A program made the translations under genes and the position numbers. DNA of 64,000 nt from Escherichia coli (lineage in GTDB: Bacteria > Pseudomonadota > Gammaproteobacteria > Enterobacterales > Enterobacteriaceae), in assembly GCF_050920415.1 (NCBI RefSeq), contig NZ_CP169309.1; one strand, given 5' to 3'. The first letter of the stretch is position 1; each line of letters starts with the position of its first letter. The notes under the pieces are model-generated. The model made no database searches. It was not told where the DNA came from and worked only from the letters and a program-made list of their open reading frames with translations. Positions 15,538-20,845 of this stretch are shown in pieces.

Positions 15538-15851
15538 TTGGGGCCATTTTGACTCATAGAGGAAAGCATTACGCACGAACTTTCTTAGTTTATTATTTGG
15601 ATTTATATTCTATTAATACATTCTTTTATAGATTTTCATATTGAACACGGTGGTTTTTGGAGAGATGAATGAGGAAGTTGCTTCGAGACACAGAAACGTT
15701 AACTTTACCTATAGCGGAGGTGATGTGAAATTAATTTATAAGAGAAACAATTTACATATCAAACAGTTAGTTGCTTTATATCGTTTTTTTATATTTTTAT
15801 GCTTGAGAACAAATACAAAACTTTTTTATGATATGGACAGTTTGGCCCCAA
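15538..15851. promoter_or_regulatory. fimS: fimS invertible phase-variation switch (314 bp) bounded by 9-bp inverted repeats; carries the fimA promoter
   Basis: ttggggcca at 15538-15546 and its exact reverse complement tggccccaa at 15843-15851, 314 bp end to end, lying between fimE and fimA. Confidence 0.85.
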
Positions 15852-15898
15852 TTGTCTTATATTTCTTTATCTTTTCATATTATTATCAATAAGTTACA

Positions 15899-16495
15899 TC
15901 AGGCATCTTCTCTTTTTAATTTTTCGTTTATGAGATTATTTCTTTCCCATAATCCGGCAAAACGTGCAGCATTACTGGCGGTATAACGCACAGTATGGCG
16001 AATATTTCGATGCCCGAGATAATCCTGAATTAAACGGGTATCTGCACCACGCTCCGCCAGTTCATAACCGCAAGCATGCCTTAACATATGAGGATGAGTC
16101 TGCGTCACGGTTCCAGCTTCAATACCGGCATCGCGAATAATGCGATAGGCCTGCTGGCGAGAAAGTCGACTCCCGCGGCGAGAAATAAATATGGCGTCGG
16201 TCTGGTCAGCGCCTTTCCAGTTAGTACGTTCCTGGGTCCAGCGCTCCACAGCTTCACGCTCATCAAAACGTAACGGGTGAACGGTAGAAAATCCGTTCTT
16301 CAGTCGGCGGATATTTATTCGACCTTCGTTAAGGTCAAGATCCTGATAATGCAGATCAAGCAGTTCACTAATACGCATCCCATGCCGATATGCCAACAAA
16401 ATTAGGCAATAATCTCTGGCTCCCGTTGCCCCGTAACAAACCGCCTGCATCATGTCCTGAACTTCTTTACCGGTAAGATAACGACGTTTACTCAC
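15899..16495 (-). CDS. fimE: Tyrosine site-specific recombinase FimE (ON-to-OFF inversion of fimS)
   Basis: 198-aa ORF with integrase-family catalytic residues (HPHMLRHACGY...LGHRNIRHTVRYT); the recombinase gene nearest fimS. Confidence 0.95.
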   Translation of the reverse strand: MSKRRYLTGKEVQDMMQAVCYGATGARDYCLILLAYRHGMRISELLDLHYQDLDLNEGRINIRRLKNGFSTVHPLRFDEREAVERWTQERTNWKGADQTDAIFISRRGSRLSRQQAYRIIRDAGIEAGTVTQTHPHMLRHACGYELAERGADTRLIQDYLGHRNIRHTVRYTASNAARFAGLWERNNLINEKLKREDA

Positions 16496-16972
16496 AATAG
16501 TAGTACTCCTGACTGAGATATATTTGAATGAATACCTATAGGAAACCTCGATCGGTTAAAATTAGCCCAATAGATAAAAAGATAACCACACAGGAAGTTA
16601 TGTGGCTATCAGTCAATTACATTAAATATCATACAAAAATAAAATATCACTGATGTGACAACATCTATTTTCATTGATTTGATTCAATATAACAATAGAT
16701 TGCAGCGGATTAACTTCCAGTTGCTTAAAAAATAAAGAAAAAAGTGCAGAAACAGGAGAACTTGAGTGATGTGTAAATTTATGAATGATTTTGTTTATTT
16801 ATTTTGAAGAACATAAACCATTGTATTTTGTATGGATATGGTTAACTTAATGTTTATTATGATAATTAAGGATCACACTTACAATAACATCAATTAATAA
16901 ATGGTTAATCATTTTTGATATATCGTAAGAATAATGTATTTTTTAACACCATCCCTGGTATCTCATCTATCT

Positions 16973-17575
16973 CTATAAAACAGCGTGATGCTGTCGTCCT
17001 CTGGCTCTATCCCAGATGCCGTAAAAACGCCCTGCATTGCTGGCGGTATACCAGACAGTATGACGAATATTGCGATGCCCAAGATAATCCTGGATAAGTC
17101 GTGTATCTATTCCCATATTCGCCAAAGCAAAACCACACGAATGGCGTAACATATGCGGATGAATCTCCAGTGATAACCCAGCATTACCACCAGAAGTCGA
17201 GATAATATGGTAAAACTGTTGCCGAGAAAGCGGGTTCCCCTTACGTGATAAAAATACCCACTCGCTCTCAGCATGCGGATAAGAAGTACGTATACTCAAC
17301 CAGTTTTTTAAAGCCTGAACTTCTTTGTTCAATAGCGGGTGCGTTGTTGAAAAGCCTTTTTTTAATCGATGGATATATATACACTTTGCCTTAAGATCAA
17401 TATCCGAAATCCTCAATCGACAAATTTCACTCGCCCGGAAACCATGAATAAAACAAAGCAAAGTCAGACAATAATTACGTGCTGCATGAGGCCCGGTATT
17501 TGCTGCTTTAAGGAGTGACTCGATTTCACTATGGGTCAGGAAGTTCCTTTTTTTGTTATCAGCCTTATTCTTCAT
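16973..17575 (-). CDS. fimB: Tyrosine site-specific recombinase FimB (bidirectional inversion of fimS)
   Basis: 200-aa paralogue of FimE (HPHMLRHSCGF...LGHRNIRHTVWYT), upstream of fimE. Confidence 0.95.
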   Translation of the reverse strand: MKNKADNKKRNFLTHSEIESLLKAANTGPHAARNYCLTLLCFIHGFRASEICRLRISDIDLKAKCIYIHRLKKGFSTTHPLLNKEVQALKNWLSIRTSYPHAESEWVFLSRKGNPLSRQQFYHIISTSGGNAGLSLEIHPHMLRHSCGFALANMGIDTRLIQDYLGHRNIRHTVWYTASNAGRFYGIWDRARGRQHHAVL

Positions 17576-19002
17576 CGTTTTCCCTTATAATTACAGACGC
17601 GCACTAGCTGTGCTGGGTTAGCAATAATCCAACATTTTAATCCTGATTATGTTTATAAAAGCGAACGTTTGCTTAATAACTAACGTAAGTGGACCAGTTC
17701 TTCTGAGTGAACTTAAATGGAGTAGCGATAGTTACTTATAATAACTTTGCCATACAAACGCCATGCTCTTGCATGCTATGTACCTTTATATATTTATCAA
17801 TCTGATACGAATCTAATAATAACCCTCATCATTAATGCAACTAATCTTATCTATATATCATGTGATATGTTCTGTAACAAGTAAAATCAACATAAAAAAT
17901 TCAGCAAAATTTAATATTCGTTCAACTAGCCGTCTCACATATGACATTATTAGTCAACTGCATTTGCCACAAGATGGCTATTTCATGGAACGCAGTAATT
18001 TCTTAGCGTCTATTATCATGCTAATTCTTAGGTCCCTAGCGATTATTCCAGCCTGGTTCGTCAGCTTACGCCATGAGATTGCTACATTCCTTTTTATCAT
18101 GGAGATATGGGGGAAAGCAGGCGACGCTTTTTCATCTACATTCATTGGTAAATATGGCTTTGGTCACTACGCCTTAAACCTTCTTCAATCACAGCTATTC
18201 GCCGGGCGATACGGCAAACAAACTAAGTGAAGCATCATCCTGAAAACACCAATGCGTACTGAACATCAACAAGCCTCTCCTGATCGACTTCAGAAGTGAC
18301 CAGTTACAAGCCACAAACCTGGAAACATATTTCATGATGAGAATTATGCTCAGCCTGATGGCGGGTAAACACTTATTTTCACCACGCTCACTGAGTTAGC
18401 CAGCAAAGGCCTCTTGTTTAGAGAGCAAATAAATTACATATAAAACAAATAGTTAATCAAATATCTTTGATTTGTGAAGGCCATCGTAAGTGTTCGTCTG
18501 ACTTCACATGGCATCTTCTTCATAGAAAAATATAGACATATTTTGTGACACGAATTGCAAATCTGGTTTTGTTATATGGATTGTGTGATTTTTGATCTGG
18601 TATAACAGGTATAAAGGTGTACCGCAGTAGTCAATGAGACTGAGCATCTCGCAATCTATGACAAACATCACTTCAGTCTGAAAGGAATATGAAAATGAGA
18701 TCAACAGACACTCTATTTTATGACTCTGGATAAAATGGATTGAGTAAGTGATATAGCTTACGAACATTCAAATCAATTAAACATCAGAAGAGATTTTATA
18801 CTCAGGTATTTAATCTGGTTCTCTGTTTATTTAAATAATGTGGAAGATAATTTTCACAGGAGACCTTATACAAAAAATATAAAATACAGCTACCAGTTAC
18901 CAAAGACACTATAAGCCTGGCAAAAAATATTACACAACATAAATGCTAATTGTTTATGCGGGCTTTGTATTGCTTTCTGTATCCTACAAATGAGTGAAAT
19001 TT

Positions 19003-19719
19003 ATGAAAAAGGCTAAAATACTTTCTGGCGTATTATTACTGTGCTTTTCGTCACCATTAATTTCTCAAGCTGCGACACTAGACGTACGTGGTGGATATCG
19101 TAGTGGAAGCCACGCCTATGAGACTCGACTCAAAGTCAGTGAGGGATGGCAAAATGGATGGTGGGCAAGTATGGAAAGTAATACCTGGAATACCATTCAT
19201 GATAATAAAAAGGAAAATGCCGCACTCAATGATGTTCAGGTTGAAGTTAATTACGCGATTAAACTTGATGATCAATGGACGGTGCGCCCGGGAATGTTAA
19301 CGCATTTTAGCAGCAACGGCACACGCTACGGACCCTACGTAAAACTGTCCTGGGACGCGACAAAAGATCTTAATTTTGGCATTCGCTATCGTTACGACTG
19401 GAAAGCTTACCGACAACAAGACTTATCCGGTGAGATGTCTCGTGATAACGTTCATCGTTGGGATGGATATGTCACTTACCATATTAATAGTGATTTCACC
19501 TTCGCATGGCAAACGACGCTATACAGCAAACAAAACGATTATCGCTATGCAAACCATAAGAAATGGGCGACGGAAAATGCATTTGTTCTACAATACCATA
19601 TGACGCCTGATATTACGCCATACATAGAATATGACTACCTTGACCGTCAGGGTGTTTATAACGGCAGAGATAATTTATCAGAAAACAGTTATCGCATTGG
19701 TGTGTCATTTAAACTGTAG
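19003..19719 (+). CDS. nanC: KdgM-family outer-membrane channel for N-acetylneuraminic acid
   Basis: 238-aa ORF from MKKAKILSGVLLLCFSSPLISQA with a beta-barrel-like alternating pattern and C-terminal ...YRIGVSFKL. Confidence 0.85.
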   Translation: MKKAKILSGVLLLCFSSPLISQAATLDVRGGYRSGSHAYETRLKVSEGWQNGWWASMESNTWNTIHDNKKENAALNDVQVEVNYAIKLDDQWTVRPGMLTHFSSNGTRYGPYVKLSWDATKDLNFGIRYRYDWKAYRQQDLSGEMSRDNVHRWDGYVTYHINSDFTFAWQTTLYSKQNDYRYANHKKWATENAFVLQYHMTPDITPYIEYDYLDRQGVYNGRDNLSENSYRIGVSFKL

Positions 19720-19738
19720 TAGACAGGAGACAGTCACA

Positions 19739-20845
19739 ATGAATAAAACAATAACGGCGCTTGCTATCATGATGGCTTCATTTGCCGCAAACGCGTCTGT
19801 ATTACCGGAAACTCCGGTGCCATTTAAAAGTGGTACCGGAGCAATTGATAACGACACTGTCTACATTGGTTTAGGTAGCGCAGGTACGGCATGGTACAAG
19901 CTGGATACACAGGCCAAAGATAAAAAATGGATAGCGTTAGCTGCATTCCCTGATGGGGCGAGAGATCAAGCAACCTCTGCATTTATTGATGGCAATCTGT
20001 ACGTATTTGGCGGCATTGGCAAAAACAGCGAAGGCTTGACTCAGGTATTTAATGACGTACACAAATACAACCCCAAAACCAATAGCTGGGTTAAATTGAT
20101 GTCGCACGCGCCGATGGGCATGGCGGGCCATGTGACTTTTGTACACAACGGCAAGGCTTATGTTACTGGCGGTGTTAACCAGAATATCTTCAATGGCTAT
20201 TTTGAAGATCTCAACGAAGCTGGAAAAGATTCAACCGCTATAGATAAAATCAACGCCCACTATTTTGACAAAAAAGCAGAAGATTATTTCTTCAATAAGT
20301 TTCTGTTGTCTTTTGATCCCTCAACACAGCAATGGAGTTACGCTGGCGAATCTCCCTGGTACGGGACGGCTGGTGCAGCGGTTGTGAATAAAGGCGATAA
20401 AACCTGGCTTATTAATGGTGAAGCCAAACCAGGACTACGAACGGATGCCGTATTTGAACTTGATTTCACCGGTAATAATTTGAAATGGAATAAACTTGCT
20501 CCCGTCTCATCACCAGATGGCGTCGCTGGCGGTTTTGCAGGCATGAGCAATGACTCACTTATATTTGCCGGAGGGGCCGGATTCAAAGGTTCACGGGAAA
20601 ATTACCAAAACGGTAAGAACTATGCGCATGAAGGCCTGAAAAAATCATATAGCGCTGATATTCATCTTTGGCATAACGGGAAATGGGATAAATCGGGCGA
20701 ATTATCGCAAGGTCGGGCCTACGGAGTATCATTGCCCTGGAATAATAGTTTATTGATTATTGGCGGTGAAACTGCAGGCGGCAAAGCGGTAACGGATTCA
20801 GTATTGATCTCTGTGAAGGATAATAAAGTCACAGTGCAAAACTAA
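19739..20845 (+). CDS. nanM: N-acetylneuraminate epimerase/mutarotase (Kelch-repeat protein)
   Basis: 368 aa from the internal Met MNKTITALAIMMASFAANA (signal peptide); repeated GG/GH Kelch-like blades; directly follows nanC. Confidence 0.85.
   Translation: MNKTITALAIMMASFAANASVLPETPVPFKSGTGAIDNDTVYIGLGSAGTAWYKLDTQAKDKKWIALAAFPDGARDQATSAFIDGNLYVFGGIGKNSEGLTQVFNDVHKYNPKTNSWVKLMSHAPMGMAGHVTFVHNGKAYVTGGVNQNIFNGYFEDLNEAGKDSTAIDKINAHYFDKKAEDYFFNKFLLSFDPSTQQWSYAGESPWYGTAGAAVVNKGDKTWLINGEAKPGLRTDAVFELDFTGNNLKWNKLAPVSSPDGVAGGFAGMSNDSLIFAGGAGFKGSRENYQNGKNYAHEGLKKSYSADIHLWHNGKWDKSGELSQGRAYGVSLPWNNSLLIIGGETAGGKAVTDSVLISVKDNKVTVQN

Follow-up and report, generated by a model that had tools for sequence, protein, structure and literature searches.

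The stretch of Escherichia coli DNA analyzed here (64,000 nt, referred to as the window) contains the divergent genes fimB and nanC and, between their start codons, a long interval that is the subject of this report. The fimB gene encodes the tyrosine recombinase of the fim switch and nanC the outer-membrane channel for N-acetylneuraminic acid (Neu5Ac). The initial annotation, made from the sequence alone, had described a long and AT-rich interval at 17576-19002, and these coordinates were exact: the interval measured 1427 bp and had a G+C content of 35.7%, versus 48.4% in the whole window, with values of up to ~45% within 18100-18400. Its unusual length was borne out as well. In the annotated 41-kb neighborhood of a strain that is 100% identical, it was the biggest gap between features and three times as long as the runners-up (479 and 477 bp), which are two other fim regulatory gaps. 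The Prokaryotic Genome Annotation Pipeline (PGAP) left the interval without any feature both in K-12 and in the 100%-identical strain. The fim/nan locus was oriented opposite to the K-12 map, with fimA, fimE (15899-16495) and fimB on the minus strand and nanC, nanM and nanS on the plus strand.

A homologous interval was present in 5109 of 5426 complete E. coli genomes, and the window could be aligned collinearly to the K-12 interval over its full length with 95% identity excluding gaps. When 100,044 species genomes were searched with FimB, fimB turned up without a nanC neighbor in Citrobacter, Klebsiella, Raoultella and others, and the surroundings of these fimB genes showed no similarity to the DNA of the fimB–nanC interval. 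The arrangement is therefore specific to the genus, and the only outgroup available was one divergent Escherichia, strain E69. For comparison, 15 alleles of the interval were aligned, namely those of the window, K-12, 12 other E. coli and E69. Together, the results point with high confidence to the fimB–nanC divergent regulatory region of E. coli, a control region that is shared by the two genes and is not itself a gene.

Regulatory elements between fimB and nanC

On the nanC side of the interval (Table 1), a pattern match located the NanR operator that had been claimed in the initial annotation. It consisted of three repeats arranged as GGTATA-ACA-GGTATA-AA-GGTGTA, and this composite pattern had no second match in the window and none in 100 shuffles, while the bare GGTATA hexamer was found at chance frequency (19 found vs 18.9 expected). 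Repeats 1 and 2 were invariant in all 15 alleles and repeat 3 was variable. A GATC adjacent to the operator has been reported for all three NanR sites (PMC5155068). This Dam site was lost through a point mutation in two of the 15 alleles (23CRST042 and RMDEC465). In genomic SELEX (systematic evolution of ligands by exponential enrichment) experiments, NanR bound the nanC/fimB spacer, which was the sole site still bound after Neu5Ac (PMC5934670).

The hexamer TATAAC inside the first NanR repeat was taken as the −10 element of nanC. Transcription of nanC would therefore start at ~18613 and NanR would cover the −10 and +1 positions, with the center of a CRP-like site at −61.5; this layout appears to be a self-consistent class I arrangement. 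The predicted promoter was supported by two lines of evidence. The nanXY promoter shares an 81-nt module with 83% identity, in which a CRP-like site is followed by GATC and the NanR repeats (L030 2977-3057 in strain 300081 vs 18542-18622 in the window), and a long 5′ untranslated region (UTR) has been published for nanC, with a Spot 42 site near its start codon (PMC3495738). The nanXY genes also have a gap of ~400 nt before the ATG, and the nanXY and nanC leaders are unrelated. The Spot 42 sequence that was used for pairing was confirmed in 5424 genomes, and its seed duplex with the nanC leader reached −25.4 kcal/mol, a value equalled by 1 of 300 shuffles.

The NagC operators claimed in the initial annotation were located as well, one proximal to fimB (ONC2) and one proximal to nanC (ONC1). 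NagC sites are quasi-palindromic and 23 bp long, the TT/AA at ±5,6 are their only invariant positions, and C/G at both ±11 positions marks sites of high affinity (PMC4288165). A repeat finder independently picked two related 21-nt direct repeats, 211 bp apart, which corresponded to ONC2 and ONC1. The distances to the fimB start were ~480-490 bp for ONC2 and ~700 bp for ONC1, and fit the published range of ~470-760 bp upstream of fimB for the NanR and NagC operators, the nearest of which lies at ~470 bp (PMC3173223). Among the alleles, ONC2 lay 481, 482, 492 or 512 bp from the fimB start (17845-18337) and at no other distance; these values equal 45.8, 45.9, 46.9 and 48.8 helical turns and represent ~3 independent events. 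These near-whole-turn differences may hint at a constraint on helical phase, the number of independent events being small. A further conserved block, GGTAAACACTTATTTTCACCACG at 18364-18386, adjoins ONC2; no published function was matched to this block. An IHF-like core was found between the two NagC operators. Sohanpal 2007 reportedly placed an IHF site midway between the NagC operators, and the window sequence is consistent with the order of the operators and the NagC spacing of 212 bp described for K-12.

For fimB, a sigma-70 promoter, a 271-nt leader with a MicA target near the ribosome-binding site, an ops-like element ~180 nt upstream of the ATG and a deletion that ends beside the −10, at −277 from the open reading frame (ORF), have been published (PMC3911127). 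The SlyA operators are located at −167 to −194 of the fimB promoter and H-NS protection extends from ~−500 to +150 (PMC3173223). The promoter was placed in the window from the published UTR length, the end of the −277 deletion and the SlyA site positions. As both SlyA sequences were matched exactly at 18013-18039, the fimB start could be fixed at ~17845; its position rests on homology, with promoter and leader being 97-99% identical to K-12. The leader was 97% identical to K-12 and 93% identical to E69, compared with 83-84% at fourfold-degenerate sites. The −35 region was invariant and the MicA target identical in all 15 alleles, OSA2 was identical in 13 and OSA1 in 10 of them. The MicA seed duplex had an energy of −21.1 kcal/mol, which was equalled by 2 of 300 shuffles. 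A generic promoter and terminator scan yielded fewer promoter-like matches than shuffles did and missed the fimB promoter, and was therefore uninformative. RNA folding of both leaders revealed no unusual stability relative to shuffles, with z-scores of −0.25 for the nanC leader and +0.63 for the other.

TABLE 1 Positions in the window of the genes, predicted elements, reading frames and conservation blocks at the fimB–nanC interval
Feature	Position	Strand	Remarks
fimB coding sequence	16973..17575	-	200-aa ORF; 99.5% identical to K-12 FimB; annotated fimB in the 100%-identical record; left boundary
fimB 5′ untranslated leader	17576..17845	-	~270 nt here, 271 nt in K-12
Block: fimB leader and promoter	17576-17965		conservation high
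MicA target in fimB leader	~17594-17610	-	published site near ribosome-binding site; seed pairing
ops-like element TGGCGTTTGTAT	17751-17762	-	in fimB leader, from PMC3911127
131-aa ORF	17835-18230	+	81-aa C-terminal version starts at 17985
fimB sigma-70 promoter	17846..17880	-	−10 TATATA 17852-17857; −35 TTGTTA 17875-17880; start ~17845
SlyA operator OSA1 TTAGCATGATAA	18013-18024	-	exact match to published sequence; overlaps H-NS sites
SlyA operator OSA2 CTAGGGACCTAA	18028-18039	-	exact match to published sequence; overlaps H-NS sites
Block: spacer A, between SlyA/H-NS region and ONC2	18046-18320		conservation low
NagC operator ONC2, fimB-proximal CATATTTCATGATGAGAATTATG	18326-18348		TT/AA at ±5,6; C/G at both ±11
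Block: ONC2 island	18334-18383		conservation high
Block: spacer between NagC operators	18387-18530		conservation low
Divergent patch	18401..18668		~270 bp; ends at 34-bp deletion; defines rare haplotype
IHF-like core AAACAAATAGTTA	18440..18452	+	midway between NagC operators; 1 mismatch to WATCARNNNNTTR
87-aa ORF	18504-18767	-	from ORF list
Block: ONC1, CRP site, nanC promoter, NanR repeats 1-2	18532-18606		conservation very high
NagC operator ONC1, nanC-proximal CATATTTTGTGACACGAATTGCA	18537-18559		TT/AA at ±5,6; C at −11
CRP-like site TGTGA-N6-TTGCA	18544-18559		overlaps ONC1
Dam site GATC	18595-18598	+	one base upstream of NanR operator
NanR operator GGTATAACAGGTATAAAGGTGTA	18599-18621	+	pattern match
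Predicted nanC −10 TATAAC	18601-18606	+	inside first NanR repeat
Block	18607-18672		conservation low
nanC 5′ leader	18613..19002	+	~390 nt, predicted length
34-bp deletion junction	18668/18669		nanC leader; relative to K-12 and E69
Block: nanC leader	18673-19002		conservation high
14-codon upstream ORF MKMRSTDTLFYDSG	18689-18733	+	Shine-Dalgarno; intact in 15/15 alleles
Spot 42 target	~18970-18988	+	nanC leader; pairs with 5′ end of Spot 42
nanC coding sequence	19003..19719	+	238 aa; 99.6% identical to K-12 NanC; annotated nanC in the identical record; right boundary

Constraint across alleles and proposed mechanism

The outgroup is labeled 'Escherichia coli strain E69' (CP089930.1). Its fourfold-degenerate sites in fimB and nanC differed by ~17% from both the window and K-12, and those in nanM by ~33%; by these distances, the strain behaves as a separate Escherichia lineage. 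In the alignment, the conserved islands coincided exactly with the published elements and the spacers between them evolved fast. Compared with E69, the promoter and leader blocks had 5-13% mismatches, and the two spacers had 35-41% mismatches and many indels, well above the synonymous value of 17%. Spacer A alone accounted for 35% mismatches and 45 gap columns, and it holds an 11-bp segment (18251-18261) without a counterpart in K-12-type alleles. ONC2 was identical in 14 of the 15 alleles and thus formed a conserved island amid diverged DNA, ONC1 carried at most one substitution across the alleles, and the IHF-like core was retained with substitutions in all 15 inside an otherwise hypervariable spacer. 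The part of the nanC leader at 18673-19002 differed by 2.4% from K-12, compared with 4.6% at fourfold-degenerate sites.

Measured between their centers (18337-18548), ONC2 and ONC1 lay 211 bp apart in the window, against 212 bp in every one of the 14 other alleles. E69 keeps the 212 bp by two compensating indels, despite 36-41% mismatches between the operators. Since the spacing was kept while the sequence drifted, it is the length of the spacer and not its sequence that is constrained, which indicates an arrangement as would be expected for a protein-bridged loop. The comparison thereby separates the constrained parts of the region (operators, promoters, both leaders and the 212-bp spacing) from the drifting ones.

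Several observations weigh against the interpretation as a regulatory region. The window has a NagC spacing of 211 bp instead of 212, and its nanC leader lacks 34 bp. The minimal NagC pattern was no commoner in the window than in shuffles, so that the motif scan proposed as a check in the initial annotation validated the NanR operator and was uninformative for NagC. The CRP-like site has two mismatches, and matches of this kind occurred at chance frequency in the window. As the minimal patterns of NagC and CRP were at chance, the evidence for these two assignments comes from position, conservation and the literature. A perfect match to the IHF consensus was absent from the region and the best core had one mismatch; for the IHF sites claimed initially, the interval offers this candidate core, halfway between ONC2 and ONC1.

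At the level of sequence, all published elements are present in the interval, correctly ordered and spaced and selectively conserved, with a partly conserved, one-mismatch core as the candidate for IHF. In this strain, they are predicted to be bound by the respective proteins. The sites have been reported to control fimB and nanC in K-12, and the literature in this way confirms for K-12 the coupling of fimB to host-derived sugars that the initial annotation had put forward (PMC3173223, PMC5934670, PMC5401889). According to the K-12 model, NanR would occupy the GGTATA repeats over the −10 and start of nanC, and NagC would occupy two operators separated by ~212 bp, with IHF bending the DNA in between. 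In this state, the two regulators would repress nanCMS while activating the fimB promoter from a distance of 470-760 bp. Sialic acid would free NanR and N-acetylglucosamine-6-phosphate (GlcNAc-6-phosphate) would free NagC; on release of the regulators nanCMS would be induced, and fimB expression and the OFF-to-ON switching of type 1 fimbriae would go down. The AT-rich DNA at the fimB promoter would be silenced by H-NS, with SlyA counteracting this at its two operators, and post-transcriptionally MicA would act on the long leader of fimB and Spot 42 on that of nanC. The link to sugar sensing is established for K-12, so that encountering the region in the window brings no new kind of insight. 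It is a known region whose allele-specific features are the only points that go beyond the textbook, and these are minor.

Reading frames and alternative explanations

The interval contains ORFs, and a hidden protein-coding gene could be represented by the 131-aa ORF or by its 81-aa C-terminal version. This frame was open in 10 of the 15 alleles (one of these alleles has a 12-nt insertion that keeps the frame), PGAP calls the 81-aa version 'hypothetical protein' in strains WL297 and MB50, and 92 E. coli entries for the ORF were found in the protein database. These 92 relatives, however, were all E. coli hypotheticals of 79-207 aa, with none from another genus, and the 131-aa/81-aa ORF is unannotated in K-12 and in the 100%-identical strain. 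The 131-aa frame was frameshifted or stopped in K-12 (88 aa), in O157:H7 (73 aa) and in two other alleles, and it was destroyed in E69. In the ten open alleles, the ratio of nonsynonymous to synonymous polymorphism (pN/pS) was 1.6 in its own frame, above both other frames, and no Pfam match was obtained for any of four ORFs searched. With its N-terminal third, the 131-aa ORF runs antisense across the leader and promoter of fimB, and it then extends over the SlyA operators; this overlap explains the conservation seen there. A coding gene at this position is thus extremely improbable. The 87-aa ORF was created by the 34-bp deletion in the nanC leader and occurred only in alleles that carry this deletion. 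No ORF of at least 25 aa was preserved in all 15 alleles. Both ORFs were rejected as genes because of their broken frames, the pN/pS of 1.6, the lack of a Pfam match and homologues confined to E. coli, in line with the initial annotation. Its term 'non-coding' held in so far as no gene was found; the region is not untranscribed, because the two long 5′ leaders together make up ~660 of the 1427 bp.

The gap could also be what decay has left of a former gene or mobile element, with a center that has no function. Such an origin would be compatible with the G+C content of ~45% at 18100-18400, with the two spacers (18046-18320 and 18387-18530) evolving at or above the synonymous rate and gathering indels, and with the restriction of the region to Escherichia, as no counterpart lies beside fimB in Citrobacter, Klebsiella or Raoultella. 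Against it, ORFs translated from the center had no homologue outside E. coli and no Pfam match, a repeat search of the interval found neither terminal repeats nor features resembling an insertion sequence (IS), and the NagC–NagC length is conserved to the base pair, as if the spacer acts as a measured linker. We consider a functionless remnant very unlikely, and a decayed origin, even if correct, would be compatible with a regulatory function. A further alternative concerns the nanC leader, in which translation of the 14-codon upstream ORF might modulate nanC, e.g., by shielding the long leader from premature termination. Its Shine-Dalgarno sequence (AAGGA; AGGAG in E69), start, stop and length were kept in all 15 alleles including E69, and the surrounding DNA was somewhat better conserved than fourfold-degenerate sites. 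The peptide itself was not conserved, with four non-synonymous changes and one synonymous change relative to E69, and an ORF of 14 codons easily survives by chance in DNA that is ~87% conserved. The K-12 RefSeq record contains no small protein at this position, though the neighboring small protein YthB, which was named in a ribosome-profiling study of stalled initiation, is annotated. The nanC leader was also not unusually structured, as judged from the z-score given above, and an Rfam scan of 16400-19800 at E ≤ 1 gave no match anywhere in this range. A role of this kind is thus quite unlikely. The upstream ORF is not annotated anywhere, and a literature search for Ribo-seq support of small proteins from the interval gave nothing usable.

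The rare haplotype, related systems and observations in relatives

The window carries a rare haplotype of the fimB–nanC regulatory region. Over 18395-18700, identity to the window reached 95% or more in only 6 of 5099 genomes and was no higher than 90% in all others. Relative to strain WL297, mismatches amounted to 18% in 18387-18530 and to <1% in fimB, nanC, the fimB leader and spacer A. The differences in the patch were mostly derived relative to E69 and left the operators untouched. The patch is probably a short recombination import or a case of local rapid divergence. The segment deleted at its end is flanked in other alleles by a 9-bp direct repeat, CACTTCAGT, which suggests replication slippage. 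The 211-bp NagC spacing was common to the window and its identical relative. The patch, the 211-bp spacing and the 34-bp deletion could together have a measurable effect on the strength with which sialic acid and GlcNAc couple the induction of nanC to the down-regulation of fimB; alternatively or additionally, the 14-codon ORF could be a translated and so far undescribed regulatory element. We regard such an effect as unlikely. The rare natural variant could serve as a ready-made test of the requirements for spacing and leader.

Compared with the fimB–nanC (yjhA) region of K-12, the flanking genes and the order of the elements were the same, and the SlyA operators, ONC1, ONC2, NanR repeats 1-2, the GATC, the fimB promoter and the MicA and Spot 42 sites were identical. 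The K-12 interval differs in its length (1455 bp vs 1427 bp in the window) and in its NagC spacing of 212 bp; it has the 34 bp of the nanC leader that are deleted in the window, and lacks the 11-bp segment of the window. In addition, the two differ by 16% mismatches in 18387-18530, and the third NanR repeat is GGTGCA in K-12 and GGTGTA in the window. With the other NanR promoters, nanATEK-yhcH and nanXY/yjhBC, the nanC promoter shares the adjacent GATC, which is found at all three operators (PMC5155068). Among these promoters, the copy at nanC alone would also affect a second, divergent gene (fimB) from afar and would be combined with a NagC–IHF–NagC loop, and the third repeat, which is GGTATA at nanXY, is degenerate at nanC. 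The nagE–nagB, chb and glmU systems likewise have two 23-bp NagC sites that are bound cooperatively via a DNA loop (PMC4288165, PMC5401889). NagC acts there as a local repressor and at fimB as a distant activator, and the fimB loop would be long (212 bp) and IHF-assisted.

Some minor observations were made in relatives and in the surroundings of the interval. In strain 315, the DNA from part of fimH across fimB to position 263 of the interval is replaced by an IS1, and a strain otherwise identical to the window carries an IS2 between nanM and nanS (L001 9403-10631). The fimB gene was frameshifted in strains MB50 and 2017-02-2CC, and nanC contained an internal stop in WCHEC035148. FimB sequences 98-100% identical to that of E. 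coli were present on short contigs of a Bacteroides metagenome-assembled genome and of Jiangella anatolica, and these contigs are almost certainly assembly contamination. Two perfect matches to the IHF consensus were located at 15757-15769 and 15884-15896, in the AT-rich fimE–fimA interval. This interval is the site of the fim invertible switch, and it was collinear with K-12 HMS174 and only 88.7% identical to it.

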